The position numbers and the translations under genes were made by a program. The notes beneath the pieces are model-generated. The model did no database searches. It was not told the DNA's origin and saw only the letters and a program-made list of their open reading frames with translations. From Candidatus Staskawiczbacteria bacterium (GTDB lineage: Bacteria > Patescibacteriota > Minisyncoccia > Minisyncoccales > Staskawiczbacteraceae), in assembly GCA_026395175.1 (NCBI GenBank), contig JAPLZF010000010.1, forward strand, positions 4,450 to 68,449: 64,000 nt of DNA, in the 5' to 3' direction. Positions 4,717 to 60,566 of the stretch are shown in pieces; position 1 is the first letter of the stretch, and every line of letters begins with the position of its first letter.

Positions 4717-4730
4717 TATTTTATTTATTT

Positions 4731-4778: not shown

Positions 4779-4785
4779 CTTTTAT

Positions 4786-5184
4786 TTATGCCTTTCGCTC
4801 AAGCCTTTCTTTTATTTTTCCCACCACATCTTTTAAATTCCAATCAGATTTCACCAAATAATATGCCGGCTCGTTGTCAACAACAGCTTTCATTGTTTTT
4901 TCTTCGTCTGGCGACAAATTAGTCAAAAGTATGATAGGCACATCTTTTCCGTAAGGGTTTGTTTCCCTAAGCTTATACATCATAGTTATTCCGTCCATTA
5001 CGGGCATTAAAATATCAAGCAGAATGATGTCGGGTTTTTCGCTTAAAGCAAGACCCAATCCCTCTTGGCCGTTTTTTGCTTGAAGCACAAAAAACCCCTC
5101 GTCGCGCAATTCTTCTGAGTATGGCTTTAAAATCAGCTCTTCGTCTTCCACAATTAAAATTTTTGTTTTATTATCTTCATCCAT
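4786..5184 (-). CDS. Single-domain response regulator (REC only, CheY-like)
   Basis: 132 aa; KILIVEDEE acidic pocket, phospho-acceptor context DIILLDILMPVMDG, conserved K in PIILLTNL...K region; sits directly after the kinase gene. Confidence 0.9.
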   Translation of the reverse strand: MDEDNKTKILIVEDEELILKPYSEELRDEGFFVLQAKNGQEGLGLALSEKPDIILLDILMPVMDGITMMYKLRETNPYGKDVPIILLTNLSPDEEKTMKAVVDNEPAYYLVKSDWNLKDVVGKIKERLERKA

Positions 5185-5201
5185 AATTATTGATGTTAAT
5201 T

Positions 5202-41051: not shown

Positions 41052-43178
41052 ATGTTTAAAAATATCAAGCTATTGCATTGCCTAGTTTTTGTATTTGTTG
41101 TTTTGCTGATTATTTTTGTTTTTTCAGCAACCGGGAATAATACTGTTAACTTTGGCATTGACAATATATTACAGTTTCTTAAAGCAGTAATATCAGACCC
41201 CATACAAGATCTTCTACAAAGAATTCAATCGCTTTATGGCGGCACCCCTAATGCCGAAATCTGTCCAACGGGGTATACGCATGCATCTAATGGCAATTGT
41301 GTTCCGATTGTTTGTGAAACAGGGAAAGTTTTGTTAATAGACCGGTGCGTTGACAGCTGTCCTAAAGGATACATTAAAAATGGGGCGACATGCGAGTTTA
41401 ACGGCTGTCCAATTGGATATACTGAAACGCAAGACACAATTTTGAAAGGAAAAAAATGCGTTTTTACAAGCTGCCCAACTGGATATGTTTTGACAGGAGA
41501 TGAATGCATAGGATGCCCTGTTGGACAAACTTTGGTAGAAACTCTTGTAAAAACTAAAATTGAAAACGCTTGTGTCAAAGACTGCCAGCCAGGATATGCC
41601 AGATTTAAAGACCAAAATGACGCAACGGGACAGGCTTATGAATCAGATTGCAGTAAAATTGTCTGCGAACCGGGAAAGATTTTAGTGGGCAATGAATGCA
41701 TCCAAAAAGTTTGCGCAACCGGATATGTTTTGACAGGTGACACCTGCGTTTGCGCAACTGCAGATGATTGCGCGCCTTCTGCTTCTTGCCCTTCAGGATA
41801 TACTGCAACAAGAGAAAATACTTGCATTAAAAACTGCCAAACAGGATACTCTGCGTCAGGAGACAAATGCGTTAAAAATTGTCCCATTGGATGGACTCCA
41901 GATACCATAACGGGAAATGTATGCAATTATGCCGGATGTCCAACAGGATATTTTTTATGGGGAAATTATTGCATTGCAAATTGCAAAACAGGATATGTTT
42001 GGATGCCAGGCGACTATCAGTGCAACAAAAATACATGTTCTGCAAAAGGATATGCTCCAACATATTTGGGAGGACCCTGCGTTGCTTCATGCCCGGCAGG
42101 ATATGTTATGCAGGGAAACGCTTTAACAGCCAAAAAATGCGTCATTGCCTGTCCGTATGGATACGCTCCAACAGAAAAAGGAGATGAGTGTTCAAAAACA
42201 GGAACTTCTGCTCCAGCACCAAATCCTGCGCCAACCCCAACTCCTGCGCCAACCCCAACTCCAAATCCTGCGCCAACCCCAGAGCCTCGGCCTGAAACTC
42301 TTGTTGTCAGTTGTTCTGCCTTGCCAGAATCAACTTCTCTAAACAAAACTGCAAACTTTGTTTCGCTAGTATCGGGCGGAACCGGTTCAAATAATTATAC
42401 TTGGTCTGGAGCCTGCGCTGGCACAAATCCAAATTGTAGCGCGTCTTTTGCCTGGGTGGGAAAACATACGGCAACTTTAAAAGTGGTTTCTGGCGGTCAA
42501 ACAAAAACTGCCAGCTGTGACACTAATGTTGCAACAGCGCCACCGGTAGGAGCAACAACTTTAAGCGTAACAACCGCCAATGGAAATGCGCAATGGGATT
42601 TAACAAATTTACCGGCTGATGTTGGTTATGGAGATGTTGTCTGTAAAGGAACTTACAACGGGAATGCTCCCGGTTTTAATTTTTCCGGTGAAAATTATTA
42701 TGCCTACATTGGACCAAGCTTGGCTCCAAATAATGCCAGGAATTTTAACCCAACAACTGCCGGCTTGCTTGCAATTACCTGCACAGCCGGAAGCCACACC
42801 TGGACCGGAATAAAAAACATTTCTGCAAGTGACATAGTTCCTACCTCAACCCAAACAACGCCTTTGCCTGCAACACCAAACCCTTCTCCTATGACAGGAA
42901 ATATTTCAACAAGCCCAAACCCGGTTTCTCCAGGACAATGCATGCTTATAACTTGGAACAGCGCTAATGCCTCTCATGTTTTTATTTACGGCTATGGATT
43001 TACTCCATCATCAGATAGCATAATGAACTGGGCGGAGATGGTGCCTGCAAATGGTGTCAGACGAATCTGTTTGGAACCAACTATAAAACCACGCCCCTCA
43101 TTTTACTTGTTATATCTTACTGATAATCTTTATAAGGTAAAAACAACATTTGAAGCCGAACTCACAATAGAAAGATAG
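41052..43178 (+). CDS. Cys-rich repeat surface protein (CxxGY-type repeats, PT linker, Ig-like C-terminal domains)
   Basis: 708 aa; N-terminus MFKNIKLLHCLVFVFVVLLIIF; about 17 repeats of C(P/E/Q/K)xGY..(x5-8)C; linker APAPNPAPTPTPAPTPTPNPAPTPEPRPE; PKD-like SGGTGSNNYTWSGAC. Confidence 0.8.
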   Translation: MFKNIKLLHCLVFVFVVLLIIFVFSATGNNTVNFGIDNILQFLKAVISDPIQDLLQRIQSLYGGTPNAEICPTGYTHASNGNCVPIVCETGKVLLIDRCVDSCPKGYIKNGATCEFNGCPIGYTETQDTILKGKKCVFTSCPTGYVLTGDECIGCPVGQTLVETLVKTKIENACVKDCQPGYARFKDQNDATGQAYESDCSKIVCEPGKILVGNECIQKVCATGYVLTGDTCVCATADDCAPSASCPSGYTATRENTCIKNCQTGYSASGDKCVKNCPIGWTPDTITGNVCNYAGCPTGYFLWGNYCIANCKTGYVWMPGDYQCNKNTCSAKGYAPTYLGGPCVASCPAGYVMQGNALTAKKCVIACPYGYAPTEKGDECSKTGTSAPAPNPAPTPTPAPTPTPNPAPTPEPRPETLVVSCSALPESTSLNKTANFVSLVSGGTGSNNYTWSGACAGTNPNCSASFAWVGKHTATLKVVSGGQTKTASCDTNVATAPPVGATTLSVTTANGNAQWDLTNLPADVGYGDVVCKGTYNGNAPGFNFSGENYYAYIGPSLAPNNARNFNPTTAGLLAITCTAGSHTWTGIKNISASDIVPTSTQTTPLPATPNPSPMTGNISTSPNPVSPGQCMLITWNSANASHVFIYGYGFTPSSDSIMNWAEMVPANGVRRICLEPTIKPRPSFYLLYLTDNLYKVKTTFEAELTIER

Positions 43179-43543: not shown

Positions 43544-44068
43544 ATGCAGCAGCCAAAGCCAAAAGAACAAAGAGTAGAAGTGCTGATAGACGTTCAGAAT
43601 TTATACCACTCGGCAAAAAATCTTTACCATGCAAGGGTTAATTACGGAGAAGTTTTGAAAAATGCAGTAGCCGGAAGAAAGTTTATCAGGGCTTTTGGCT
43701 ATGTTGTGCGCACAAAAACTGGCGAAGAAACGCCATTTTTTGATGCCCTAAGCAAAATTGGCATTGAAACCCGCGTGCGGGATTTGCAGGAATGGTATGG
43801 CGGAGCCAAAAAAGCAGACTGGGATGTGGGCATTGTAATTGATGCCATTAGGACAGCGCCCGGAGTTGATGTGGTTGTTTTGGTTTCGGGTGACGGCGAC
43901 TTTATTGCCTTGGTTGAATATTTAAAAAATATGGGAAAACGAGTTGAAGTGGTGGCATTTGGCAGAACAACTTCTGCAAAGTTAAAAGAAGTTGCCGATG
44001 AATTTATTGATTTAGACGAAGGTTTGGTAAAATTTTTACTGTCCGGCGAAAAACCAAAGAAAAAATAA
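43544..44068 (+). CDS. NYN-domain (LabA-like) putative ribonuclease
   Basis: 174 aa, starting 3 nt after the rpsO stop; VEVLIDVQNLYHSAK...DWDVGIVIDAI...VVVLVSGDGDFIALVEYLKNMGKRVEVVAF. Confidence 0.8.
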   Translation: MQQPKPKEQRVEVLIDVQNLYHSAKNLYHARVNYGEVLKNAVAGRKFIRAFGYVVRTKTGEETPFFDALSKIGIETRVRDLQEWYGGAKKADWDVGIVIDAIRTAPGVDVVVLVSGDGDFIALVEYLKNMGKRVEVVAFGRTTSAKLKEVADEFIDLDEGLVKFLLSGEKPKKK

Positions 44069-44092
44069 ATAATCGTGCGGTGGGGGAAGAAT

Positions 44093-44602
44093 ATGAAAAA
44101 TTCAATTATAATTCCAAGCGAAAGGATTGTCAGCAAAATTTATATTATCCGCAATAGAAAAGTTATGCTGGATAAAGACCTATCCGAGCTTTACGGAGTT
44201 AAAACAAAAGATTTAAACGCATCAGTAAAGAGAAATAAAAAAAGATTCCCGGAAGATTTTATGTTTCAGCTCACAAAGGAGGAGTTCAAAATCTTGAGGT
44301 TGCAAATTTCAACCTCAAGTTGGGGAGGCACAAGGTATATGCCACTTGCTTTTACAGAGCAAGGAGTTGCAATGCTCGCCAGTGTTTTGAACAGCGACCG
44401 AGCAATAAATGTAAACATCCAGATTGTTAGAACCTTTGTAAAAATCCGCGAGTTTATGACAACTAATGAATTGTTGCAAAGAAAAATGATGGAATTAGAG
44501 AAAAAATATGGCAAATATAGTGAGCAGATAAAGAAAATATTTGGGATATTGAATTTATTGGCGCTAGACGAACCGAAAGAAGAAATCGGATTTAAAAAAT
44601 AG
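44093..44602 (+). CDS. ORF6N-domain (KilA-N-related) DNA-binding protein
   Basis: ATG at 44093 (MKNSIIIPSE); IRNRKVMLDKDLSELYGVKTKDLNASVKRNKKRFPEDFMFQLTKEE matches the ORF6N pattern. Confidence 0.8.
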   Translation: MKNSIIIPSERIVSKIYIIRNRKVMLDKDLSELYGVKTKDLNASVKRNKKRFPEDFMFQLTKEEFKILRLQISTSSWGGTRYMPLAFTEQGVAMLASVLNSDRAINVNIQIVRTFVKIREFMTTNELLQRKMMELEKKYGKYSEQIKKIFGILNLLALDEPKEEIGFKK

Positions 44603-50483: not shown

Positions 50484-51329
50484 ATGGATTTGACTTCTCC
50501 AAAAATAATAAAAGAACTTCTTTCAAAATATAATGCCAGGCCTTCAAAAGGATTGGGACAGAATTTTTTGATAGACAAGAATGTTTTAAACAAAATTATT
50601 GAAGCTTCAGACATAAAACCAAGCGATGTTATTTTGGAAGTGGGCCCGGGCATTGGAACTTTAACGCAGGAACTGGCAAAAAAGGCCAAAAAAGTTATTG
50701 CAATAGAAAAAGACAAAGTAATGATTGAAATTTTGAAAGAAACCTTGAAAGATTCCAAAAATATTGAAATCATCCAAGGAGATATTTTAAAAAATAAATT
50801 ATCTCTGCCAAAAAAATATAAGATAGTTGCAAATATCCCGTATTATTTGACTTCACCTTTAATCAGAAAATTTCTGGAAAGCGAAAACCAGCCAGAAGAA
50901 ATGGTTTTGATGCTTCAAAAAGAAGTTGCCCAAAGAATTTGTTCAAAGCCTCCGCGAATGAGTTTGCTGGCAGTGTCTGTGCAGTTTTATGCCGATGCAA
51001 AAATTGTTTCTTATGTCTCAAAAAACTGCTTTTGGCCTGCTCCAAAAATTGATTCGGCAATAATAAAAATTCACCCAGTTAAATCGCCCGAAGGGCGAAT
51101 TTTGGCAAAGCCAAAATTATTTAACGGGGTAAACTCCCAACTTTTTTTCAAAGTTGTAAAAGCCGGATTTTCCCAACCCAGAAAACAATTAGCCGGCAAT
51201 TTATCAAAAATGTTAAAGTTAAGCAGAGAAAAAACAAACAGCTGGCTTTTGAAAAACAATATTGCCCCAACCCAGCGGGCTGAAACATTAAGCGTTGAAG
51301 ACTGGAAAAATTTGGCAAATAGTTTATAA
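50484..51329 (+). CDS. rsmA: 16S rRNA (adenine1518/1519-N6)-dimethyltransferase
   Basis: 281 aa; GQNFLID, EVGPGIGTLT, NIPYYLTSP; a TATTAT -10-like hexamer ends 6 nt before the ATG, so the transcript may be leaderless. Confidence 0.93.
   Translation: MDLTSPKIIKELLSKYNARPSKGLGQNFLIDKNVLNKIIEASDIKPSDVILEVGPGIGTLTQELAKKAKKVIAIEKDKVMIEILKETLKDSKNIEIIQGDILKNKLSLPKKYKIVANIPYYLTSPLIRKFLESENQPEEMVLMLQKEVAQRICSKPPRMSLLAVSVQFYADAKIVSYVSKNCFWPAPKIDSAIIKIHPVKSPEGRILAKPKLFNGVNSQLFFKVVKAGFSQPRKQLAGNLSKMLKLSREKTNSWLLKNNIAPTQRAETLSVEDWKNLANSL
51265..51305 (+). repeat. 41-bp direct repeat, copy 1 (functional rsmA 3' end)
   Basis: CCCCAACCCAGCGGGCTGAAACATTAAGCGTTGAAGACTGG; 39/41 identical to 52168-52208. Confidence 0.95.
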
Positions 51330-51336
51330 TTACCTT

Positions 51337-51747
51337 ATGGAGTTAGAAAAACAACAAAAAATAAATTTAAAAGAAATTGCAAAAAGATATCATCTAAAGA
51401 TGGTCTTACTTTTTGGTTCACAAGCAACAGGTAAAACACATAAGGAAAGCGATTTTGACATTGCTTATTTGCCGGAGAAAAATTTAAGTTATGATGATGA
51501 AATTAATATAAATCTTCAATTTGCAAATATTTTCAGAAACGACAGAGTTGATACGGTGGATATAAATAAATCTAATCCATTGTTGCTTTTTCAAGTAAGT
51601 AAAAATTCAATTTTGCTCTATGGAAACAGGCAAGATTTTTTAAAATTCAAATTATACGCATTCAATGCATATAACGACTACGCTCCTTATTTTAAAATGG
51701 AAAATAATTTGAATAAAAAAATAATCAACGCTTATGCCAATCGATAA
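51337..51747 (+). CDS. Nucleotidyltransferase (MNT-type antitoxin)
   Basis: ATG at 51337 (MELEKQQK), 8 nt after the rsmA stop; LFGSQATGKTHKESDFDIAY (GSxxxGx5-6SDxD). Confidence 0.85.
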   Translation: MELEKQQKINLKEIAKRYHLKMVLLFGSQATGKTHKESDFDIAYLPEKNLSYDDEININLQFANIFRNDRVDTVDINKSNPLLLFQVSKNSILLYGNRQDFLKFKLYAFNAYNDYAPYFKMENNLNKKIINAYANR

Positions 51748-52156
51748 AAAAATTATCAGCCGAAAAATAACTTTGATAAATAACGACTTAAAAAGCTTAA
51801 AAGCATTAAGCAAGCTTTCTCTTAAAACTTATTTGAGCAAATCAGAATACGAAGCGCTGGCGGAAAGATATTTAGAAAGGATAATCGGCAGGATGATTGA
51901 TATTAATTATCATATTTTATCGGAAAAAGAAAATGAAATTCCAACAGATTTCTACAATTCTTTTATTGAATTGGGCAGAAAAAAGTATCTGCCATTTAAG
52001 TTGGCGGAAATAATGGCTAACTCCGCCGGACTGCGGAACAGATTAGCGCACGAATATGACGAAATCGACGCTAAAAAAATTTTTGAAGCAATAGCATCTT
52101 GTTTGAAAAACACGCCAAAATATTTAAAAAACATCGTTAAGTCGCTTAATTTATAA
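51734..52156 (+). CDS. HEPN (DUF86) toxin
   Basis: 140 aa; 14-nt overlap with the MNT gene; R-x4-H motif in GLRNRLAHEYDEID. Confidence 0.85.
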   Translation: MPIDKKIISRKITLINNDLKSLKALSKLSLKTYLSKSEYEALAERYLERIIGRMIDINYHILSEKENEIPTDFYNSFIELGRKKYLPFKLAEIMANSAGLRNRLAHEYDEIDAKKIFEAIASCLKNTPKYLKNIVKSLNL

Positions 52157-52167
52157 AAATAACATCT

Positions 52168-52208
52168 CCCCAACCCAGCGTGCCGAAACATTAAGCGTTG
52201 AAGACTGG
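52168..52208 (+). repeat. 41-bp direct repeat, copy 2 (orphan rsmA 3' end remnant)
   Basis: CCCCAACCCAGCGTGCCGAAACATTAAGCGTTGAAGACTGG. In the rsmA frame it continues to SPTQRAETLSVEDWLKLNKNFK-stop; both mismatches are synonymous third positions. Confidence 0.95.
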
Positions 52209-52233
52209 CTGAAATTAAATAAAAATTTCAAAT

Positions 52234-52273
52234 AAAAAGGAGGTCTCCCAACGAACTAGCGTCGGGAAACCTC
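52234..52273 (-). terminator. Terminator of GC-rich cassette B
   Basis: rc GAGGTTTCCCGACG-CTAGTT-CGTTGGGAGACCTC (two G-U pairs) followed by C-TTTTT. Confidence 0.75.
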
Positions 52274-52302
52274 ATAAATCGTGCCTTTCGGCATTCCATG
52301 CC

Positions 52303-52641
52303 TTACCTCCCTGTCGCAATGTGACGAGCCCACTCACGCTTCTTCGCCGGATCAGTCGGTGGGTTGTTCACGGTGTGCGCCCATGCAATACGAGCGTCTA
52401 TGTCGCTCTTGGCGCTTTGGGCAGGTGTCTCTTTCGGGGTTTCCAGCACTTCTTGTTGCTGAGAATCCGCAACAATTACCCCGTTCTGGTGGGTCAACGC
52501 TGGGACCACGAACACCACCAGAATTCCTACTGCAACCACAATCAAAGCTGTGACAGCTATTGCGGTTACCATTTGAATCCCAGTGTAATTCGTGGCGGAC
52601 CTTACTTTGTGTCCTTGGATAAAATCGGCGTGCGTAGTCAT
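52303..52641 (-). CDS. Small bitopic membrane protein (GC-rich cassette B, 112 aa)
   Basis: ATG at 52641 (MTTHADFIQGHKVRSATNYTGIQMVTAIAVTALIVVAVGILVVFVV) with GTGAGG 8 nt upstream; the longer track start lies upstream of the predicted promoter. Linker QQEVLETPKETPAQSAK; 57% GC on line 52381-52440. Confidence 0.6.
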   Translation of the reverse strand: MTTHADFIQGHKVRSATNYTGIQMVTAIAVTALIVVAVGILVVFVVPALTHQNGVIVADSQQQEVLETPKETPAQSAKSDIDARIAWAHTVNNPPTDPAKKREWARHIATGR

Positions 52642-52708
52642 CGTTAGTACCTCACAATCCCTATTCAGTTGACAATGGTCAGATGAAACATCATTGACCT
52701 CTAATTTT

Positions 52709-52737
52709 AGATTAAGCAATATCAAAGAGATTGTCAA
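52709..52737 (-). promoter_or_regulatory. Promoter of cassette B
   Basis: rc AAAAGTC-TTGACA-17 nt-TAATCT; shares the 12-mer AAAGTCTTGACA with the cassette C promoter. Confidence 0.5.
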
Positions 52738-52773
52738 GACTTTTAACCGAGAGGTGTGAATAATTTTTTTCAC

Positions 52774-52824: not shown

Positions 52825-53142
52825 ATGCCAGAACAGAAAGAAGAAGAACAAAAAAAAGAAGGGGACGGCAATAGCGGTAATTTAGCTTCTCCTGAAGGAA
52901 TTTTGATGCTTTGTGTAGCTGGGATTATAGACGCTATCAGTTTGATTCCGGTAATTAATATTATTTCAGACATTTTGGGAATTATCATTATTGGAGGATG
53001 GCTATTAATAACCCGCCCTGGCGAGGCTGTTAAAAAAGCTGTTAAAAGATTTCTTATTGCTTGTGGAATAGAATTAATTCCCATTGTGAGCATTGCCCCA
53101 TCTTGGACTTGGTTTGTTTACAAAACATTAAAAGACAATTAA
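52825..53142 (+). CDS. Small membrane protein, first gene of the T4SS-like locus
   Basis: 105 aa; acidic N-terminus then 2-3 hydrophobic helices (GILMLCVAGIIDAISLIPVINIISDILGIIIIGGWLLI). Confidence 0.6.
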   Translation: MPEQKEEEQKKEGDGNSGNLASPEGILMLCVAGIIDAISLIPVINIISDILGIIIIGGWLLITRPGEAVKKAVKRFLIACGIELIPIVSIAPSWTWFVYKTLKDN

Positions 53143-53157
53143 AAAAATATTTTTATT

Positions 53158-55053
53158 ATGAATTTTTTCTTAAAAATTTTGCGACATAAAAAAATAATAT
53201 TTTTTATTGTTTTTTTTATTGTTATTTCGGCAATTATTTTACCTCATCTCGCATCAGCACAAGGAATGTCAGGAGAAATAGATGATATGACCATGAATGC
53301 AGGCGATGTGAATATCGGCGATATTGTTGGACCAGCCGCAAGAGCGATAAGCAATGTTGCTATAGCGCCACTTTTAACCGCCATTGTTTGGGGGATTACA
53401 CTTACTTCAATTTCAGTTTTTGGCACTCTTTCTAATCTTGCTGGTGGATTATTACTTTATATAATATCTTTGAATGCAGACCCAACATGGGCATTCACCA
53501 AGTTCACTAATCCTGTAATAGCTATTGGCTGGACTCAAGTAAGAGATTTAGCTAATATGGTTGTCGTATTAGGTTTTGTCATTATAGGAATAGCGACTGC
53601 TTTAAGGATTAAAACATATCAGGCAAACCAACTTTTAGCCAAACTAATAATTGCAGCTCTTTTAATAAATTTTTCTTTATTAATTTGTGGAATATTTATT
53701 GACGGCTCTAATATATTAACGACTCATTTTCTGCAAAGTGGGGGATTTTTAGAAAAATCTGTATCACAGAGTATAACAGATCAGGTGACTGCTCTTTATA
53801 ACAATACTCACTTATTTGATATATCTGCGATTCCTGATTTAATCGGAGCGGCCATATCAATTATTTTTTTTGACGTTATAACATTGATTACGTTTTTTCT
53901 TTTCTTTTTCCTATTTTTAGCCAGGTATGTATTTTTGTGGATATTGGTTGTTCTTTCACCATTGGCTTTTGTTTGTTATGTATTTCCATTTACAAAAAAG
54001 TTTTTTGATATGTGGTGGAATAATTTTTTCCAATGGTGCATTATTGGAGTAGCTGGTTCCTTTTTTCTTTTTCTTGCGGACAAATTAACTGTAGGAATAA
54101 CCAGCACAACAACAAATGTAGCCGCCCAAACTACAGGCACCAGCATGTTTTCTTATCTTGTGCCTTCTGTATTTTTGCTTGGCGGGCTTTTATTCTCCAT
54201 GCAATCAGGCGCAATTGGAGCCAGTATGGCAGTATCAGCATTCAAAAAAACTGGAAAAGTAGGAGGAGGAATATTACAAAATTCTAGAGTAGGACAAGCA
54301 ACTGGCAACCTTGGAAACAGACTTAAGTCGGGTTCTTTGCAAGCATTGGAATCTATGGGGCTTGCCGCTCGAGGTACAACTTCAAACTCAAATACAGCGG
54401 CAGTAGCAAAACGTCAAAAATATACAGCAAATATGACAGACAATGAGGTGTTGGCAGATATGAGAAAAAGCGGGGTAATTGGAGTCGCCGCATTCAACGA
54501 AGCTCAAAAAAGAAAAATTGTCAATCAATATGCTGGCGGAGATGTAAACCAAATTGCTACACGGGCTGCCCGTGCTAGATCATGGGGAATAAACACTACT
54601 GATGCTGAAAAACAAGTGACTGAGTTATCAGGGCACAATGATAATTCTGTCAGAAATGTTATAAGAGACCAAGTTACTGGCACAGTAAACATAAATCCTA
54701 CTACTGGAGTTGCGTGGACACAACCAGAAGCTCAAAGAGAAGCTGTTAGAAGAAGAAATGCTGGACTATCTGTTCCTAATTTGAGAGATATGCATCATAG
54801 TCAAATAAATGAAAATGTTGCTGAGGATGTAGATAATAGAACATTTGATAGAGCTGCTTTGGAATTTAATAAAGAACAAATGGATAGATACAGAGGACTG
54901 GTTGCTCCAGGCGGCGCTTTAATTACAAGACAAACAGCCCTAAGGGCACAATATGCTGCTGAAAGGGCGGCTGGGCATAATGCTCAAGCCGATCACTTAC
55001 TTGCACAACTAAATAATTTGTCCGCAAACATAGGATCAATTGCAGCTTGGTAA
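53158..55053 (+). CDS. Polytopic membrane protein, VirB6/TrbL-like by architecture and context
   Basis: 631 aa; signal-like N-terminus, at least 6 TM helices over ~330 aa, hydrophilic C-terminal ~230 aa. The assignment is contextual, not motif-proven. Confidence 0.55.
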   Translation: MNFFLKILRHKKIIFFIVFFIVISAIILPHLASAQGMSGEIDDMTMNAGDVNIGDIVGPAARAISNVAIAPLLTAIVWGITLTSISVFGTLSNLAGGLLLYIISLNADPTWAFTKFTNPVIAIGWTQVRDLANMVVVLGFVIIGIATALRIKTYQANQLLAKLIIAALLINFSLLICGIFIDGSNILTTHFLQSGGFLEKSVSQSITDQVTALYNNTHLFDISAIPDLIGAAISIIFFDVITLITFFLFFFLFLARYVFLWILVVLSPLAFVCYVFPFTKKFFDMWWNNFFQWCIIGVAGSFFLFLADKLTVGITSTTTNVAAQTTGTSMFSYLVPSVFLLGGLLFSMQSGAIGASMAVSAFKKTGKVGGGILQNSRVGQATGNLGNRLKSGSLQALESMGLAARGTTSNSNTAAVAKRQKYTANMTDNEVLADMRKSGVIGVAAFNEAQKRKIVNQYAGGDVNQIATRAARARSWGINTTDAEKQVTELSGHNDNSVRNVIRDQVTGTVNINPTTGVAWTQPEAQREAVRRRNAGLSVPNLRDMHHSQINENVAEDVDNRTFDRAALEFNKEQMDRYRGLVAPGGALITRQTALRAQYAAERAAGHNAQADHLLAQLNNLSANIGSIAAW

Positions 55054-55671: not shown

Positions 55672-56922
55672 TTATCTCCTTCTTGTTTTTCTTTTGTCCT
55701 TTCTTTCCGCCCAAGCCCGTAATTGAGCTGGATTCATCTTGCTGAGGTCCGGATGATCGTCATCCTCATCATCGACGAGTTCATCCGAATCATCGTTAGA
55801 ATTTCTTCCGCCACCGCGAGGGTTGCCTTGACGGCCGGGATTGCCAACACCACGCTGACCGCCACCGGAATCTTTTACGGCGAAGGCCGCAGCGACTCCA
55901 CCGATTAGCTCGGCAATACTCCCTTGGGCGAATGGAGTTCCATCTACCGAACCTATGCGAATGTCGCGCAAATCGCCAGAAGCACCAGCACGGTCGCGTT
56001 TGACCTGATCCCATGCTCTGTCAAAGTCATCCTTGAATCCGCCTTCGGAATTCGGAATACCCCTTAACTTGGGATTTGCATCAAGCTTCTCTTTCAATTC
56101 GTCTTCGGTGATATGAGCGAGCCGAGCGACAGATTTTAGAATTCTGCCAGCCGTCTCTTCCATGTCCTTGTCGGCAGTCTGCTGAGCGCTCCACTTCGCA
56201 AGGGTTGCCTCACGATAGCCCTCAGGTGGGTCAATATTGACCGTCTCCAGGGCAAGCAGTTCAATTCCATACTGATTCTTCAATATAGAAATAATGCTCG
56301 GCTCACCGCCAGGTCCATCATGGGCCAGCATTGCGAAGACATCCCTGTCTAACTGAGTACCGGGATCGTTGATGATTTTGTCGTACTCGTGCTCTGAGAT
56401 GTACTGCCTTACCCTCGGAAGAACACGGGTGACAAGAGCATCAAACCAATCTCTAACTAGAAACAAGGCTTTGTACGGGTTGATGATCATTGCCGTCATC
56501 GTCATTATCCCGTGTAGAGGAAGTTTTTTCATATCCTCTGCGTTAGAAAACTCCAGCCCATACTGATACTGCGTGCCGGCAAGGATGAAATCCGTATTCT
56601 CATCTTGACGGCGCTCAAATTTCCCGTCGGGAAGAGCTTTAGTGTAGCGCATAGTGCGAGAGTAAATCCTATCAATGCCCAGGGGCCTTAACAAGCTAAC
56701 CCAACGCAATCCGCCTAAAAGAGCAGGACTACTTGAGCCTCCCTCGACCACATCTCCATCAGAGCTCAGTCTAAAACCCCTCTTAGCCAATATGGTCTTG
56801 CGATATCCACCGAAGCGGACCACGTTTTTGGCCGTACCTTCTTTTACGAAAGTGAAGCAAAATAACGTGTAGACAACTGCAATCAATAAACCGACAATCA
56901 AAACACCAAGTGCATACAACAT
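55672..56922 (-). CDS. SPFH/band-7-like membrane protein with Gly/Arg-rich and acidic tail (GC-rich cassette C, 416 aa)
   Basis: ATG at 56922 (MLYALGVLIVGLLIAVVYTLFCF) with AAGGAG 8 nt upstream; the track ORF is 79 codons longer and runs through the promoter. VKEGTAKNVVRFGGY...GLRWVSLLRPLGIDRIY...YGIELLALETVNIDPPEGY resembles SPFH. GC is 48-63% on sampled lines. Confidence 0.6.
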   Translation of the reverse strand: MLYALGVLIVGLLIAVVYTLFCFTFVKEGTAKNVVRFGGYRKTILAKRGFRLSSDGDVVEGGSSSPALLGGLRWVSLLRPLGIDRIYSRTMRYTKALPDGKFERRQDENTDFILAGTQYQYGLEFSNAEDMKKLPLHGIMTMTAMIINPYKALFLVRDWFDALVTRVLPRVRQYISEHEYDKIINDPGTQLDRDVFAMLAHDGPGGEPSIISILKNQYGIELLALETVNIDPPEGYREATLAKWSAQQTADKDMEETAGRILKSVARLAHITEDELKEKLDANPKLRGIPNSEGGFKDDFDRAWDQVKRDRAGASGDLRDIRIGSVDGTPFAQGSIAELIGGVAAAFAVKDSGGGQRGVGNPGRQGNPRGGGRNSNDDSDELVDDEDDDHPDLSKMNPAQLRAWAERKDKRKTRRR

Positions 56923-57010
56923 AGTCTTTCTCCTTTTCCATATGACCCCGCTAAGCGGGGGATTCAAAGTTCTGTTTTTCAGCCAGGAAACATATCCAAG
57001 CCTATATTTA

Positions 57011-57061
57011 ATTATAGCATAATACAGGTTTCCTGTCAAGACTTTCGGCTCCTGTGGATAT
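57011..57061 (-). promoter_or_regulatory. Promoter of cassette C with ATATCCACAG box
   Basis: rc ATATCCACAG-GAGCCGAAAGTC-TTGACA-17 nt-TATAAT; -35 57034-57039, -10 57011-57016, box 57052-57061; the ~85-nt leader contains the hairpin CCCCGC-TTA-GCGGGG. Confidence 0.65.
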
Positions 57062-57071
57062 TTATATTGGG

Positions 57072-57096
57072 TTGCATTTTCTGAATGTGGTATAAT
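57072..57096 (+). promoter_or_regulatory. Promoter of the second T4SS-like operon (divergent from cassette C)
   Basis: TTGCAT-13 nt-TATAAT with an extended TGTGG-TATAAT; 19 nt before the ATG at 57116; its -35 lies 10 nt from the CCACAG box. Confidence 0.5.
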
Positions 57097-57115
57097 ACAA
57101 AAATAGAATTTTAAA

Positions 57116-57523
57116 ATGGAGCAATATCCTATACCGCAATTTATTGAAGCAGAAGGCAAAATTGCTTTCTTTATATCATTCAGACAATTTTTTTATCTGG
57201 TGGGAGCCGGCGTGGTTTGCTTTTTTCTTTATTGGATTCTGCCGACTATTCTTTTTTATATGTTTAGCATTGTAATTTTTGTTGGAACCGCAATACTTGC
57301 TTTTGCAACGGTGAATGGCATGCCCATAATAAATATAATTTTGTCATCAATCGGGTTTTCAATGGGAGGGAAAAATTATACCTGGAAGAAAAAAGAATCT
57401 CCTTATCCCTTCAAACCCATAAAAAGAACACAAATTAAAAAAATTGACCAAGGCCCTGTTTTGCAAGCCCAAACAAGCCAGCTGAAAAAAACAAAAACAG
57501 CAATAGAATTGCGGACGAAGTAG
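57116..57523 (+). CDS. PrgI-like (VirB3-like) small membrane protein
   Basis: 135 aa; MEQYPIPQFIEAEGKIAFFISFRQFFYLVGAGVVCFFLY fits the PrgI-family N-terminal pattern followed by two TM helices. Confidence 0.6.
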   Translation: MEQYPIPQFIEAEGKIAFFISFRQFFYLVGAGVVCFFLYWILPTILFYMFSIVIFVGTAILAFATVNGMPIINIILSSIGFSMGGKNYTWKKKESPYPFKPIKRTQIKKIDQGPVLQAQTSQLKKTKTAIELRTK

Positions 57524-57576: not shown

Positions 57577-57960
57577 ATGAATGAAAATAAAACAAACCAA
57601 AAATATGATTTGGAAGAGAGAACAGCAAAATTTGGAGAAGATATGGTTGATTTTGTAAAAACAATTGAAAAGAGCGAAATTAACCGGCCACTTATAAATC
57701 AAATTATAAGGTCTGCCACTAGTATCGGAGCGAATTATATGGAAGCTAATGGAGCAGGATCGAAGAAAGATTTCCGAAACAAAATATGTATTTGTAAAAA
57801 AGAGGCGCGAGAAACAAAATATTGGTTAAGAATAATTTCTAAAGCTAATTCAGAAAAATTAGACAATTGCAGATTGTTATGGCAAGAGGCTCACGAATTG
57901 ACACTTATCTTTTCTAAAATAATAATTTCATCGACAAATCAAAACCCTGAGAAAATTTAA
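57577..57960 (+). CDS. Four-helix-bundle protein (23S rRNA intervening-sequence protein family)
   Basis: 127 aa; YDLEERTAKFGEDMVDF...IIRSATSIGANYMEANGAGSKKDF..K..IC.KEARETKYWLRII is the family signature. Confidence 0.85.
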   Translation: MNENKTNQKYDLEERTAKFGEDMVDFVKTIEKSEINRPLINQIIRSATSIGANYMEANGAGSKKDFRNKICICKKEARETKYWLRIISKANSEKLDNCRLLWQEAHELTLIFSKIIISSTNQNPEKI

Positions 57961-58021: not shown

Positions 58022-58681
58022 ATGCCAGAGTCAGCAACGCAAGCATTTTTAGAAGTGCAAGATATAAGGGAAGGAGTTTTGCTTTTGAAAAATAACGGCA
58101 TAAGGGGAGTTTTGATGGCTTCTTCCATAAATTTTGCGCTAAAATCTGAAGAAGAGCAGACAGCCATAATTTACGCTTTTCAGAATTTTTTGAATTCTCT
58201 GGATTTTTTCTGCCAGATTGTTGTCCAATCAAGAAACATAAACATTACTCCTTATTTGGACAGCCTGAAAGATTTGGAAGAAAAACAAACCAACCAATTA
58301 TTGAAAGAGCAGACGGCGTCATACAGGGAATTTATAAAAAATATGGTGGTGGGCGACGTGGTTATGACGAAAAATTTTTATGTTGTCGTGCCTTACAACC
58401 TAATGGAAATTTTTGGAACAAAAGCCGTGGGAAAAAACTTCTTGAACCAATTTTCCGGAAATCAAACGCAAAACCAGCCAATGAAAGACGACGAGTTCCA
58501 AAGATGCAAAACACAGCTTTGGCAAAGAATGGAATATTTATCAATGGGTTTGCGAAGGTGCGGAATAGAAGCTATGCCTTTGACAACTCCCGAGCTTATT
58601 GAACTTTTTTGGTCTATACACCATCCCGACCAAGCGGAAATTGGGTATTACCCGGAAATTTTACCCGAACTTTTAAAGTAA
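58022..58681 (+). CDS. VirB4-type ATPase, detached N-terminal domain (tentative)
   Basis: 219 aa; FLEVQDIREGVLLLKNNGIRGVLMASSINFALKSEEEQTAIIYAFQNFLNSLDFFCQIVVQS resembles the first ~200 aa of Gram-positive VirB4/TraE-type ATPases. 219+602 aa is about the usual full length. Confidence 0.5.
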   Translation: MPESATQAFLEVQDIREGVLLLKNNGIRGVLMASSINFALKSEEEQTAIIYAFQNFLNSLDFFCQIVVQSRNINITPYLDSLKDLEEKQTNQLLKEQTASYREFIKNMVVGDVVMTKNFYVVVPYNLMEIFGTKAVGKNFLNQFSGNQTQNQPMKDDEFQRCKTQLWQRMEYLSMGLRRCGIEAMPLTTPELIELFWSIHHPDQAEIGYYPEILPELLK

Positions 58682-58699
58682 CTACGAAATTACTAATCA

Positions 58700-58752
58700 T
58701 TACGAATATACTAATACGTATTCGTAAATTAGTAAAAATTCGTAAATTAGTA
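58700..58752 (+). repeat. Inverted + direct repeats in the spacer between the two VirB4-like ORFs
   Basis: IR TTACGAATA-10 nt-TATTCGTAA (58700-58727); 14-bp direct repeat TTCGTAAATTAGTA at 58721-58734 and 58739-58752; the ATG follows 5 nt later. Confidence 0.85.
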
Positions 58753-58757
58753 GTTTT

Positions 58758-60566
58758 ATGGATTTTTTAAATAATCTTTTAGGCAAGAAAAAAGAAGACC
58801 TGACAGAAAAAATTTTTGAGGAGGAGGCTTTTGATGTGCGCGACATTATTGCTCCGCCATACATTGGAGTGACGCAGGACCACATAAAACTTGGAGAAAG
58901 GTTTGCCAAATCCTTCTTTGTTTTTTCTTATCCAAGATATTTAAACACCGGCTGGTTTTCGCCTGTCATAAATTTGAATACTCCAATGGACATTGCTTTT
59001 TTCGTGCATCCTGTGGGAAGCGAATTGATTTTGAAAAAATTAAGAAAAAAAATTACAGAAGTTTCTTCAGAAATTTTGGAAAGGGAAGAAAAAGGACTGA
59101 TTCGCGACCCTGCTCTTGAAACAGCTTATAAAGATATTGAAAGCTTAAGAGACAACTTAATGACCGCCCAAGAAAAAATGTTTCGCCTGGGGCTTTACAT
59201 AACAATTTATGAAACTTCTGAAAAAGAACTGCGCGACACCGAGCTTACGCTAAGGTCAATTTTTGAGTCGCGGTTAATTTACATAAAACCTGCCTTGTTC
59301 AAGCAAAAAGAAGGATTTATTTCCTGCAATCCTTACGGAATGGATTTGATAAATGTCCACACTCCAATGGACACAGCTCCCTTGTCAACTTGTTTTCCTT
59401 TTATTTCGTTTGACCTAAGCTCAAACGAAGGAATTTTATACGGCGTCAACCGACACAACAATTCTTTGGTTTTGTTTGACAGGTTTAGCTTGGAAAACGC
59501 CAATATGGTGGTTTTTGCAAAAGCTGGAGCAGGAAAATCTTACGCCATAAAATTGGAAATTTTAAGATACTTGATGCAGGGAGTTGATTGCATAATTGTG
59601 GACCCGGAAAACGAATACCAAGCTTTGTCAGACGCAGTCGGCGGAGCATTTTTAAAAATTTCTTTGACGAGCCAAAACCATTTGAATCCTTTTGACTTGC
59701 CTTTGCCAGGACCCGATGACAACCCCGAAGATATTTTGCGGTCAAATGTCATAAACTTAGTGGGGCTTTTACGCATTATGCTGGGAGGATTAAGCGCAGA
59801 AGAAGACAGCATTTTAGACGAAGCTCTCACTCAAACTTATGCTGTGCGAGACATTACTCCGCAGTCTGACCCCAAAACATGGCAAAATAATACTCCTTTA
59901 ATGTCAGACTTTCAGGAAATTTTAGAGAGTATGACGGGAACCGAATCTTTGGTTAAAAGAATTGGAAAATTCACCAAAGGAACTTTTGCCGATTTTTTCA
60001 ACCAGCAGTCGAATATTTCCATAGACAAAAGCTTTGTTGTTTTTGGAATAAGAGACATGGAAGATTCATTAAGGCCAATCGCGCTTTACATTATTATGAG
60101 ATATATCTGGAATATTGTCAGGTCAAAATTGAAAAAAAGAATTTTGGTTATTGACGAGGCGTGGTGGCTGATGCAGTCAGACGACGGAGCTTCATTCCTT
60201 TTTGGTTTGGCGAAAAGAGGCAGAAAATATTATTTGGGGCTTACAACAATTACGCAAAATGTGGCTGACTTTATGAGTTCTGAATATGGAAAGGCAATTA
60301 TTACAAACTCGTCTTTGCAATTTTTAATGAAGCAATCTACTGCCGAAATTGAAACCATACAAAAAACTTTCAATTTAACCGAGCAGGAAAAATATCTGCT
60401 GATTGAAGCGTCGGTTGGCGAAGGATTGTTTTTTGCCGGCAGAAAGCACGTTTATCTTTCGGTTGTTGCCAGCCAGACAGAAAACCAAATAATTACAACT
60501 AATCCGCAGGAAGTTCTGCAAAATAGGGAAGCGGCAAAGAAAAAAATAGAGTCTGCCCAAAACTGA
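58758..60566 (+). CDS. VirB4/TraE-like type IV secretion ATPase (ATPase portion)
   Basis: 602 aa; YPRYLNTGWFSPVINL (typical of the VirB4 middle region), Walker A AKAGAGKSY, Walker B RILVIDEAWWLM, TTITQNVADF. Confidence 0.88.
   Translation: MDFLNNLLGKKKEDLTEKIFEEEAFDVRDIIAPPYIGVTQDHIKLGERFAKSFFVFSYPRYLNTGWFSPVINLNTPMDIAFFVHPVGSELILKKLRKKITEVSSEILEREEKGLIRDPALETAYKDIESLRDNLMTAQEKMFRLGLYITIYETSEKELRDTELTLRSIFESRLIYIKPALFKQKEGFISCNPYGMDLINVHTPMDTAPLSTCFPFISFDLSSNEGILYGVNRHNNSLVLFDRFSLENANMVVFAKAGAGKSYAIKLEILRYLMQGVDCIIVDPENEYQALSDAVGGAFLKISLTSQNHLNPFDLPLPGPDDNPEDILRSNVINLVGLLRIMLGGLSAEEDSILDEALTQTYAVRDITPQSDPKTWQNNTPLMSDFQEILESMTGTESLVKRIGKFTKGTFADFFNQQSNISIDKSFVVFGIRDMEDSLRPIALYIIMRYIWNIVRSKLKKRILVIDEAWWLMQSDDGASFLFGLAKRGRKYYLGLTTITQNVADFMSSEYGKAIITNSSLQFLMKQSTAEIETIQKTFNLTEQEKYLLIEASVGEGLFFAGRKHVYLSVVASQTENQIITTNPQEVLQNREAAKKKIESAQN

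Follow-up and report, generated by a model that had tools for sequence, protein, structure and literature searches.

A Type VII Toxin-Antitoxin Pair between Two rsmA 3′ Ends in a Candidatus Staskawiczbacteria Genome, a Probable Scar of 3′-End Displacement

The type VII toxin-antitoxin (TA) system HepT/MntA, described in 2020 (PMC7641770), has a PF01934 toxin paired with a PF18765/PF01909 antitoxin, the antitoxin gene first and the genes overlapping, and its RX4HXY (HepT) and GSX10DXD (MntA) motifs were defined in the same work. In the C-terminal displacement or orphan arrays of Rhs, CDI, and T6SS effector-immunity genes (Jackson et al. 2009; Kirchberger et al. 2017, PMC5361080), a conserved 5′ body carries a variable 3′ tip with linked downstream cargo, the newcomer allele adjoins the working gene, and older 3′ fragments, displaced downstream along with their cargo, persist as orphans that retain some upstream homology, with no integrase. 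Restriction-modification units can show "insertion with long target duplication" (Nobusato et al. 2000; Furuta et al. 2010, PMC2853133), in which an addiction-type unit without mobility genes lies between long locus-specific direct repeats that often overlap the 3′ end of a neighboring gene and are significantly commoner than at average genes; the class is defined against an empty-site genome with a single target copy. Tyrosine-integrase islands at gene 3′ ends form another class, in which incoming DNA regenerates the gene end, the former end remains downstream, and the insert is bounded by direct repeats.

Bacteria of the CPR/Patescibacteria have tiny genomes with few recognizable mobile elements, and the gain and loss of defense and addiction genes in them is therefore poorly understood. 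We analyzed a locus from a Candidatus Staskawiczbacteria contig in which a predicted MntA-HepT pair lies between two rsmA 3′ ends; "the window" is the whole stretch of DNA analyzed, 64,000 nucleotides. Among known systems, Rhs/T6SS C-terminal displacement and the insertion with long target duplication of restriction-modification genes come closest to it, and it extends both to type VII TA systems and to an essential-gene anchor. It differs from the Rhs, CDI, and T6SS arrays in that the anchor is a housekeeping rRNA methyltransferase rather than a toxin gene, only the last 7-8 codons vary, the cargo consists of TA and defense modules instead of immunity genes, the host is a CPR bacterium, and the relics are short noncoding scars, not expressible orphan toxin tips. 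Compared with the restriction-modification insertions, the cargo is a type VII TA pair, the copies in the window and in one related locus (L112) are homeologous rather than duplicated, and no empty-site genome was found. In contrast to integrase islands, the locus has no integrase and no constant core or position, the insert is only 862 nt, and repeat length and sequence vary from case to case.

Two rsmA ends around a predicted type VII pair

The features of the locus are as follows.

50484-51329, plus strand: rsmA (16S rRNA adenine dimethyltransferase), intact, 281 aa, ending ..PTQRAETLSVEDWKNLANSL-stop (PF00398, E 1.8e-61).
51252-51305, plus strand: upstream copy of the repeated rsmA segment, RsmA residues 257-274, with near-identical core 51265-51305 (48/54 against 52155-52208).
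51306-51329, plus strand: tail 1 (KNLANSL and stop), the functional rsmA end, linked to the MntA gene (from tail type and MntA junction in relatives).
51303-51330, plus strand: promoter-like TGGAAA-16 nt-TATAAT over the rsmA stop codon, 6 nt 5′ of the MntA ATG (a 10/12 consensus match only).
51337-51747, plus strand: mntA, predicted minimal nucleotidyltransferase antitoxin, 136 aa, GSX10DXD motif (GSQATGKTHKESDFD) (PF18765, E 5.6e-19; PF01909, E 8e-07).
51734-52156, plus strand: hepT, predicted HEPN RNase toxin, 140 aa, RX4HXY motif (RNRLAHEY), 14-nt overlap with mntA (PF01934, E 6.7e-18).
52155-52235, plus strand: rsmA 3′ relic, KNNISPTQRAETLSVEDW with tail 2 LKLNKNFK and stop; core copy 52168-52208 (homology to the rsmA end).
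52240-52273, minus strand: intrinsic terminator, 14-pair stem then CTTTTTATTT, for a convergent minus-strand ORF (hairpin and T-run).
52303-52773, minus strand: G+C-rich ORF, 156 aa as listed, right-hand neighbor of the relic (ORF list).
52825-55053, plus strand: conserved right border of the hot spot, orf105 (52825-53142) and a TrbL/VirB6-like gene (53158-55053; TrbL PF04610/PF19590).

An earlier note on this DNA had reported a cassette of exactly the MNT and HEPN genes inserted into the 3′ end of rsmA and flanked by a 41-bp duplication. The repeat and its contents proved real: exactly two copies of the 41-nt sequence are present in the window (51265-51305 and 52168-52208), identical at 39/41 positions, none of 100 dinucleotide shuffles yielded any match to it, and the 862 nt separating the copies contain MntA and HepT, with five assemblies in agreement. 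We also confirmed that both mismatches (CGG/CGT and GCT/GCC) fall at third codon positions and are synonymous when read in the rsmA frame. Read past the repeat, copy 1 continues ..EDW-KNLANSL-stop and copy 2 ..EDW-LKLNKNFK-stop. The homology is longer than the note's 41 bp, however, spanning 54 nt with 48/54 identities (51252-51305 against 52155-52208); the relic, which is without a start codon, has its first nucleotide inside the HepT stop codon. The six differences across the 54 nt comprise five synonymous third positions and one Ala/Ser change. Within this segment the 41-nt core includes 24 nt of perfect identity, the adjoining 13 nt match at only 9/13, and identity ends sharply after TGG, beyond which the two tails are unalignable (12/24 nt at best).

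Because the copies differ synonymously beyond the 41-mer, they read as orthologous ends of two lineages rather than as a fresh duplication of one target, and 48/54 homology with five of six differences synonymous points to the end of a second rsmA allele. Judged from its sequence, the downstream copy would be the last 26 codons of that allele, once functional, with the tail DWLKLNKNFK; the note's reading of it as a former rsmA end is plausible. Both tails are genuine RsmA tail types: KNL[AT]NS[LIV], the type of tail 1 (DWKNLANSL), is common to many relatives, and DWLKLxKxFK, the type of tail 2, is present in other rsmA-derived ORFs such as P0245 (..EDWLKLIKSFKIE). A HMMER search with the 32-aa relic gave as best library matches 12 short rsmA 3′-fragment ORFs with similar tails, the exact tail 2 being absent from those matches. 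That KNLANSL might be a translated cassette promoter was ruled out, as the tail is also found next to an inverted TA (L191) and many RsmA relatives share it. Across 435 inter-species pairs the rsmA core averages 25.8/41 identities, with a maximum of 35/41 against 39/41 in the window, which rules out purifying selection alone as the source of the identity for distant species, although close relatives such as L190 have much of the core in common and soften this argument. The window's RsmA is 100% identical to one NCBI Candidatus Staskawiczbacteria MAG protein; its 90% cluster has one member, and no other database relative exceeds 75% identity.

Pfam matches to both genes bore out the note's MNT-HEPN pair, and the type VII signature is present: a PF01934 toxin adjoins a PF01909/PF18765 antitoxin, the genes overlap by 14 nt, and the translations contain the HepT RX4HXY motif (..GLRNRLAHEYDEID..) and the MntA GSX10DXD motif (..FGSQATGKTHKESDFDIAY..). 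By these marks the pair is a real, though predicted, type VII module. By homology, HepT would be an RNase and MntA an adenylyltransferase that neutralizes HepT through AMPylation of the motif tyrosine. Unlike the described HepT/MntA, the pair is preceded by a promoter-like site lying across the rsmA stop codon, and TATAAT likewise lies 6-7 nt 5′ of the ATG in other cassettes of this family, in which MntA diverges much faster than HepT (50-66% versus 75-91% identity). HepT relatives with 84-94% amino acid identity are found in several other CPR lineages, on contigs named Moran-, Falkow-, and Buchananbacteria and Paceibacterota, compared with 75% for the next RsmA, and on this comparison of sequences the HepT family is horizontally mobile. 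The cassette had no match in IMG/VR viral contigs or PLSDB plasmids.

Recombinase genes were sought with Pfam in the 38-64 kb part of the window, among greedily chosen longest nonoverlapping ORFs of at least 70 aa minus five short ORFs of 83-126 aa. In agreement with the note, neither integrase nor transposase was detected, nor any resolvase, and only type IV secretion system (T4SS)-like genes were seen there as related to DNA transfer. Several mobility classes were considered and rejected. A transposon, insertion sequence, or MITE is excluded by the lack of a transposase, the lack of an inverted repeat around the 862-nt insert, and the long, variable duplications; an integron gene cassette by the lack of an integrase and of any common element past the HepT stop codon, where homology between cassettes ends; and a tRNA-type attachment site by Rfam and tRNA scans that found no RNA at the locus and tRNAs only elsewhere. 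No second repeat-flanked cassette was found in the window.

Relics, linked cargo, and repeats at related loci

The order LysM/M23-rsmA-TrbL, with 3 nt to about 5 kb between rsmA and TrbL, is syntenic in 22 related loci (designated here by L numbers), and the interval contains AbiEii, 23S-rRNA-IVP/bAvd-like, MNT plus HEPN/NTase_sub_bind/HepT, PaaX/Cas2-like, and ORF6N genes. It is a gene-flux hot spot filled by TA and defense modules; Pfam scans of hot-spot ORFs from related loci detected no recombinase in the intervals examined. Relics of rsmA 3′ ends recur in it, two in L015 and one each in L016, L019, L190, and L192/193. They range from about 24 codons (L192/193) through at least 61 (L190) to about 135 (L019, 81% identical to L019's own rsmA), and their left edges vary by genome from RsmA residue about 146 to about 258. 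A conserved body, a variable 3′ tip with cargo, and orphan 3′ fragments, the marks of 3′-end displacement, are thus found together in these five loci and in the window. The note's analogy with att-site duplication was not supported: there is no recombinase in or near the insert, in 38-64 kb or among the related hot-spot ORFs, and no fixed core or position, with differing relic edges and, at other cassettes, locus-specific, unrelated repeats of 22-58 nt.

A given rsmA end goes with particular cargo on its right-hand side. The junction KNL[AT]NS[LIV]-stop, 7 nt, MntA ATG is present in the window, L190, L192/193, L194/195, L196/197, and L018, the same stop, spacing, and ATG occur beside the L019 relic, and a DWKNLANSL-type tail is joined to MntA in this way in at least six Staskawiczbacteria lineages. 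The unit is accordingly not the MNT and HEPN genes exactly, as the note had it, since the tail KNLANSL-stop travels with MntA. The L019 relic with its MNT and HEPN genes is colinear with the intact L018 rsmA-MNT-HEPN at 70-87%, and rsmA tails ending ..KW-stop accompany AbiE cassettes in L015 and L019. L190 is colinear with window positions 50905-52161 at 81.6% (MntA 84% and HepT 91.5% at the amino acid level) and has a different, longer relic and different downstream genes, so the same left unit has a different right junction; its relic is followed by a MFNGERS ORF, which in L021 comes after rsmA. A comparison of N- and C-terminal RsmA identity against neighboring genes gave at most a weak hint, and too noisy a one, that the 3′ half of rsmA travels with the TA genes.

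Flanking repeats of at least 40 bits were detected around 5 of 29 testable cassettes and 1 of 400 random control intervals. The five are locus-specific sequences of 27-58 nt; a further cassette with a 22-nt repeat stands outside the count because its contig was too short for the test, and weak repeats in L113, L123, and L124 (26-28 bits) were within the control range and left out. Repeat lengths across the cassettes are 22, 27, 31, 41, 51, and 58 nt. Examples lie at the 3′ end of a putative membrane-protein gene, identified from its translation, in L111 (22 nt); of a 157-aa gene read from translation as a putative acetyltransferase in L112 (31 nt); and of a 257-aa gene read likewise as a putative regulator in L131 (58 nt). 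L015 has a 51-nt repeat (50/51) with both edges sharp around an inverted TA. The downstream copy has a sharp left edge in L015, L111, and L131, while L112 resembles the window, with a homeologous flank (KKWKESE/KKWRESQ) and matches of 15/21, then 31/31, then 6/11. In the window, L111, and L112, and weakly in L124, the host-derived copy begins 0-2 nt from the HepT stop, and DNA homology between cassettes at different loci always ends at that stop (52155-52163 in window coordinates). At L124 a similarity to the FtsZ C terminus was seen at the protein level. With its 862-nt insert, 41-nt repeat (54 nt at 89%), and lack of mobility genes, the locus falls within the bounds given for insertion with long target duplication in PMC2853133, namely an addiction-type unit of <20 kb, no mobility genes, and direct repeats of >30 bp.

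Possible origins of the arrangement

We consider the locus to be probably a scar of 3′-end displacement at the rsmA-trbL hot spot, left by a homologous crossover together with an illegitimate junction at the HepT stop. Two alternative alleles of rsmA tail plus downstream cargo would then stand in tandem, one being the working end ..DWKNLANSL-stop with the linked MntA-HepT pair, the other the 26-codon remnant ..DWLKLNKNFK-stop with the DNA to its right. Incoming DNA from a related bacterium would pair with the chromosome through rsmA homology. It would be secured by a homologous crossover, within rsmA or upstream of it, and by an illegitimate junction of the microhomology type, where the A-run over the HepT stop codon would be joined at RsmA codon 257. 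Such homology-facilitated illegitimate recombination would involve neither integrase nor transposase; we presume it, and natural competence, for these uncultured bacteria. The right junction does sit in an A-run (TTATAA/AAAT, the slash marking the joint, versus rsmA TTGAAAAAC; L112 is similar), and that microhomology placed the joint at the HepT stop is our own tentative explanation. We somewhat favor the polarity in which a unit of rsmA 3′ part and MntA-HepT enters and displaces the resident rsmA end; the mirror event, import of the relic with the right-hand genes anchored in trbL, would give an identical structure. As an addiction module, MntA-HepT may penalize loss by recombination between the repeat copies. 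Exact-protein look-ups with RsmA, HepT, orf156, and orf105 in Logan, JGI, and ENA contigs did not find the empty allele (..EDWLKLNKNFK, no TA); contigs with the neighboring genes have the arrangement of the window or break inside HepT, and all that reach leftwards show HepT. The search turned up no close relative (>75% RsmA identity) in which the site is empty or takes another form.

Some observations fit displacement poorly. Under displacement, six differences would all miss the final 24 of the 54 nt with a probability of about 0.03, and the near-identical core with its abrupt end after TGG is predicted at least as naturally by a single crossover in a short shared core. An unlikely alternative is Campbell-type or site-specific integration of a small circle carrying an rsmA 3′ fragment (KNNIS-core-KNLANSL-stop), MntA, and HepT. 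A single crossover within the 41-nt core, the work either of RecA on a short run of identity or of a recombinase supplied in trans, would leave a host-left/element-right and an element-left/host-right hybrid copy. The mosaic of left flank, core, and unrelated tails fits one reciprocal crossover in the window and equally in L112, the insert ends joined through one core copy rebuild a coherent rsmA 3′ fragment abutting the HepT stop, and 39/41 lies above all 435 inter-species core pairs. Against the circle, no integrase, resolvase, or transposase occurs in 38-64 kb or in the hot-spot intervals examined, and no circular, excised, or empty form was seen in the contigs examined. The nearest cassette (L190) has another relic edge and spacer, so that a fresh rsmA fragment would have to be captured each time; relics of about 24 to 135 codons and 22-58-nt repeats at unrelated genes speak against a single attachment site; and the rsmA-7 nt-MntA junction, kept across lineages with about 70-74% RsmA identity, resembles linked inheritance.

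Nor does the displacement reading account readily for the host copy starting 0-2 nt from the HepT stop, which may point to a defined end of the element, not random joints, or for the sharp-edged 51-nt repeat of L015, which looks more like a true target duplication. In that explanation, which we likewise think improbable for the window, staggered breaks tens of nucleotides apart were filled in at insertion and the TA cassette is an integrase-free mobile unit. The variable, sequence-unrelated direct repeats, far commoner than at random intervals, the sharp left edges in L015, L111, and L131, and a cassette right end at the HepT stop at all loci accord with it, and other addiction modules without mobility genes are known in this class, chiefly from naturally competent species (PMC2853133). 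Fill-in would not, however, leave copies that differ synonymously beyond the core, with an insert-side flank homeologous to the target gene, as in the window and L112; tail 1 is a genuine RsmA tail common to relatives and not cassette sequence, the long relics of L190 and L019 misfit a staggered cut, and an empty-site genome with a single-copy target was not found. It is similarly doubtful that the MntA-HepT family of the CPR as a whole is an integrase-free mobile unit, running from promoter to HepT stop and inserting in either orientation at or near gene 3′ ends with 22-58-nt target duplications, perhaps moving as a small circle together with part of the gene it last targeted; if true, this would be a new mobility mode for TA genes, beyond passive hitchhiking on homologous recombination. 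Tandem duplication of the rsmA 3′ end in situ, with later divergence of the copies and the TA either inserted between them or already there, is very improbable: the copies are on the same strand 903 nt apart and 39/41 is compatible with a recent event, yet the unalignable tails are both genuine RsmA types, five of six synonymous differences are unexpected for a decaying noncoding duplicate, and the same left unit stands beside different relics in L190 and L192. Least credible, to the point of being negligible, is an assembly artefact, which the note had named as a possible refutation, or the merging of two strains into a chimeric contig through an rsmA k-mer they have in common. Many Logan contigs do break inside HepT near 51893-51925, a sign of graph branching in the region, but contigs from five separate samples (SRR20698651, ERR15302203, ERR15302165, ERR15302212, and ERR15302220) span both copies at the identical 903-nt spacing, four of them identical to window positions 51201-52300. 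The longest exact repeat run, 24 nt, is also below the 31 nt that we take to be the assembly word used for these contigs, and the same architecture recurs in L190, L192/193, L015, and L019.

Displacement at the rsmA end, the origin we prefer, suggests that small TA and defense modules ride on the last codons of a housekeeping gene and are swapped or stacked by homologous recombination and an illegitimate joint. Each such event would leave a dated trail of gene-end relics, which could serve as markers for the order of acquisitions, could be used to test whether TA modules stabilize these regions, and could help to locate other hot spots, because rsmA relic ORFs are common in metagenomes.

Neighbors of the relic

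The note had assigned the terminator after the second copy to rsmA. The T-run of the hairpin at 52240-52273 is on the minus strand, and the terminator therefore belongs to the convergent ORF at 52303-52773. This ORF had no match in a Pfam scan; its GC content is 0.50-0.54 in surroundings of about 0.30-0.40, the G+C-rich part, with a hydrophobic stretch resembling a membrane span, runs from 52303 to about 52640, and the ORF is called as a gene on 18 Logan contigs.

Two rsmA ends around a HepT/MntA pair

A 41-nt sequence at the 3′ end of rsmA, the 16S rRNA adenine dimethyltransferase gene, recurs downstream of a gene pair for the antitoxin MntA and the toxin HepT. The locus comprises the following features.

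Features at the window locus
50484-51329: rsmA, a clear RrnaAD-family gene
51265-51305: upstream copy of the 41-nt core
51337-51747: mntA, MNT nucleotidyltransferase, between the repeat copies
51734-52156: hepT, HepT-like HEPN protein, between the repeat copies
52155-52235: putative displaced rsmA 3′ end (the relic)
52168-52208: downstream copy of the 41-nt core
52240-52273, minus strand: hairpin/terminator

The two copies differ at two positions, no third occurrence was found in the window, and a 41-mer match was obtained in 0 of 100 shuffles. Both copies lie where the earlier note had placed them, with the MNT and HEPN genes between, and its 41-nt core is real, but the homology extends to 54 nt (51252-51305 versus 52155-52208; 48/54 identical), and the terminator that it had assigned to the downstream copy is instead the minus-strand terminator of the convergent ORF 52303-52773. 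The copies are 903 nt apart in five independent metagenome assemblies, four of them identical to the window across 51201-52300, and an assembly artefact is therefore effectively excluded. The window is part of a Candidatus Staskawiczbacteria MAG. Many independent Logan contigs start or end inside hepT, at window positions ~51893-51925, with ~31 nt of overlap, a sign that the assembly graph branches there; the likely cause is k-mers shared with closely related HepT cassettes of other organisms in the same samples.

Read in the rsmA frame, five of the six differences within the 54 nt are synonymous third-position changes, and the remaining one exchanges Ala and Ser. Divergence of this kind builds up while both sequences code for protein; a noncoding duplicate would decay otherwise. 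The present rsmA tail, ..DWKNLANSL-stop, is the common type among the nearest RsmA relatives, and the relic tail, ..DWLKLNKNFK-stop, is a genuine RsmA tail type as well. When the 32-aa relic peptide was run with HMMER against 1.84 billion representatives, 12 matches came back, all short rsmA 3′-fragment ORFs, whose tails include ..EDWLKLIKSFKIE and ..DDWIKLVKSFKINQ. From the coding-type differences and the genuine tail type, 52155-52235 is the final 26 codons of a second rsmA allele; its first nucleotide lies inside the HepT stop codon, and it is without a start codon of its own. Core identity (39/41) exceeds that in all 435 interspecies comparisons (mean 25.8, maximum 35), so either the alleles derive from fairly closely related lineages or the core contains a crossover. 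Duplication in situ is effectively excluded. The rsmA 3′-fragment ORFs P0241-P0252 of the representative library, 42-137 aa long and in 50%-identity clusters of their own, several beginning with unrelated N-terminal residues, suggest a wide distribution of displaced rsmA ends across metagenomes.

Relics and cargo between rsmA and trbL

An RsmA scan of species-representative genomes revealed a conserved order of a DksA-like gene, a LysM/M23 peptidase gene, rsmA, a variable interval, and a TrbL/VirB6-like gene. The interval measures from 3 nt (related locus L017) to ~5 kb and carries small accessory modules: AbiEii, 23S-rRNA-IVP/bAvd-like four-helix, PaaX/Cas2-like, ORF6N, and MNT with NTase_sub_bind, HEPN, or HepT partners. 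No recombinase was found in the hot-spot intervals of the related loci examined, and the stretch from 38 to 64 kb of the window likewise lacks genes for an integrase or transposase, in line with the earlier note. Relics of rsmA are present downstream of the intact gene in related loci as well.

Relics of rsmA in related loci
L015: two
L016: one
L019: one, ~135 codons, 81% identical to L019's own rsmA
L190: one, at least 61 codons
L192/193: one, ~24 codons, immediately upstream of trbL

The left edges of the relics vary between loci, which excludes a single attachment site. The observation behind the proposed att-like footprint is confirmed and its interpretation supported in part: what it describes is a scar left by recombination, not an att footprint.

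Particular rsmA tails travel with particular cargo. The junction KNL[AT]NS[LIV], stop codon, 7 nt, and MntA ATG is found in the window and in L190, L192/193, L194/195, L196/197, and L018, and the same stop + 7 nt + MntA ATG junction also adjoins the L019 relic; the intact rsmA-MNT-HEPN of L018 is colinear with the relic, MNT, and HEPN of L019 at 70-87% identity. AbiE cassettes accompany ..KW-stop tails in L015 and L019, and the MFNGERS.. ORF after the L190 relic is the ORF that follows rsmA in L021. Judging by these pairings across loci, the exchangeable unit consists of the last codons of rsmA and the downstream cargo, and its boundary is at the conserved QRAETLS..DW-coding block. The closest relative of the cassette, on the groundwater contig L190, is colinear with window positions 50905-52161 (81.6% nucleotide identity; amino acid identity 72.5% for the 3′ half of rsmA, 84% for MntA, and 91.5% for HepT), and it has another right junction, a longer relic, a different tail (..DWIDLTTTFNNIRIN-stop), and different downstream genes. 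A shared left unit with differing scars fits repeated recombination with one variable, illegitimate joint.

The same rsmA-MntA-HepT unit is present in L196/197 with hepT broken and without a relic. The break (L196 1563-2000, also in L197) is an internal deletion or frameshift beside an intact mntA; the toxin decayed and the antitoxin was kept. Functional rsmA is convergent with an inverted HepT in L191 (2530-2545), where the palindrome TTATAA provides Leu and stop of both, and rsmA and inverted hepT likewise share TTATAA Leu/stop codons at relic 2 of L015 (7495-7506). TTATAA is also the end of both rsmA and hepT in the window, so that an inversion, or an insertion at the palindrome, could connect the direct with the inverted arrangement.

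ORFs of ~50-56% G+C stand out in the ~30-40% G+C genome at window positions 52303-52640 and 55672-57159, both on the minus strand. The former, to the right of the relic, codes for a small protein that has a hydrophobic stretch resembling a membrane span, and the latter for a 416-495-aa protein whose sole match, to Band_7, is weak; by eye, similar G+C-rich ORFs with hydrophobic stretches lie in the same hot spot of L196 (~2150-2400) and L022 (5965-6711). These ORFs may be foreign DNA from high-G+C donors. A ~100-nt G+C-rich stretch (..GTCATTGCGAGGAGCCTGCAGGTCGCAGATCCTGCAAGGGCGACGTGGCAATCC..) lies in frame inside rsmA of L019 (5680-5770 and 7136-7226), 100% identical between functional copy and relic with flanks at ~80%; gene conversion or a mobile in-frame element could account for it.

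HepT/MntA cassettes and the origin of the scar

HepT has many relatives with 84-94% amino acid identity in contigs named Moranbacteria, Falkowbacteria, Buchananbacteria, Paceibacterota, and others; the next relative of RsmA is only 75% identical. MntA is far less conserved than HepT, with 50-66% identity in most loci. DNA homology with many cassettes begins mid-mntA (window position 51563) and always stops at the HepT stop (52155-52163), and the modules are therefore mosaics. Most cassettes have a promoter-like TTGnATTATT...TATAAT ending 6-7 nt upstream of the ATG, and the promoter-like TATAAT of rsmA-linked cassettes overlaps the rsmA stop codon. Searches of viral contigs and of plasmids gave no copy of the cassette. 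HepT contains RX4HXY (RNRLAHEY) and MntA contains GSX10DXD (GSQATGKTHKESDFD), the two motifs that mark type VII HepT/MntA systems; in such systems the motif tyrosine is polyadenylylated by MntA, blocking the RNase (PMC7641770). Judged by these motifs, the window proteins would act as a type VII pair, and as an addiction module the pair could penalize its loss via recombination between the copies.

The earlier note had proposed a search for similarly flanked cassettes elsewhere. When the flanks of HepT loci from metagenomes were checked for direct repeats, several cassettes proved to be flanked by them, with a sequence that differs from locus to locus.

Direct repeats flanking HepT cassettes
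L111: 22 nt, 3′ end of a gene whose translation we take to be a membrane protein (predicted)
L112: 31 nt, 3′ end of a 157-aa gene, presumably an acetyltransferase from its translation; flank homeologous (KKWKESE/KKWRESQ), tails differ
L131: 58 nt, 3′ end of a 257-aa gene, presumably a regulator from its translation
L109: 27 nt, promoter region
L015: 51 nt, inside an rsmA relic, TA pair inverted

Flank repeats reaching the threshold of at least 40 bits were detected at 5 of 29 cassettes versus 1 of 400 random control intervals of 815 nt. At three loci, namely the window, L111, and L112, the HepT stop and the start of the downstream copy are 0-2 nt apart; an A-run contains the junction at the window locus and at L112. 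L128 and L131 are orthologous, and the 3′ end of their anchor gene is duplicated around different inserts, which is an accretion pattern. Downstream of the repeat-flanked MntA-HepT of L112, positions 4546-5983 encode two more pairs (101 + 136 aa and 96 + 111 aa), presumably nucleotidyltransferase and HEPN-type proteins from their translations; if so, several TA modules would follow one another in tandem behind one anchor gene in L112.

Displacement of the rsmA 3′ end is the best-supported reading of the scar. DNA arriving from a relative would pair through rsmA; a homologous crossover would fix it at one end and an illegitimate joint of the microhomology type at the other, and the resident rsmA end would stay behind as the relic; 3′-end displacement has been proposed for Vibrio T6SS immunity-gene arrays and Rhs loci (PMC5361080). 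Entry of the rsmA 3′ part together with the TA pair is the narrowly favored polarity because the TA pair is the demonstrably mobile part and L196/197 shows a donor-type arrangement that has no relic. Some weight also stays with a small circular cassette that recombined through one crossover in the core, given how sharp the mosaic is and that it abuts the HepT stop exactly, and with a true long target duplication, given the sharp-edged repeats at L015, L111, and L131. Descriptively, the locus also agrees with the other criteria for restriction-modification "insertion with long target duplication" (PMC2853133); no empty-site genome was found for comparison. In the literature searched, no paper linking HEPN/MNT, toxin-antitoxin, and the Candidate Phyla Radiation (CPR) was found, and TA modules with long target duplication were found only as citations of restriction-modification work. 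The recombination scar in the window is one instance of a recurrent process at the rsmA-anchored hot spot and around the mobile HepT/MntA family of CPR bacteria.

Other accessory genes in the window

Adjacent genes for an NYN-domain (ribonuclease-like) and an ORF6N-domain protein, another small accessory pair, lie at 43544-44602 between a 708-aa ORF and pnp; further ORF6N genes are found in L019, within the rsmA hot spot, and in L194, upstream. The 708-aa ORF (41052-43178) has no Pfam match and contains a degenerate 12/18-nt tandem repeat (42195-42292; CCAACxCCAAATCCTGCGCC..) that would code for a low-complexity stretch rich in Pro, Ala, Asn, and Thr. A 23S-rRNA-intervening-sequence (four-helix-bundle) gene is located at 57577-57960 between PrgI-like and VirB4-like genes, and the VirB4/TraC-like ATPase at 58022-60566 is split into two ORFs of 219 aa and 602 aa, 77 nt apart.
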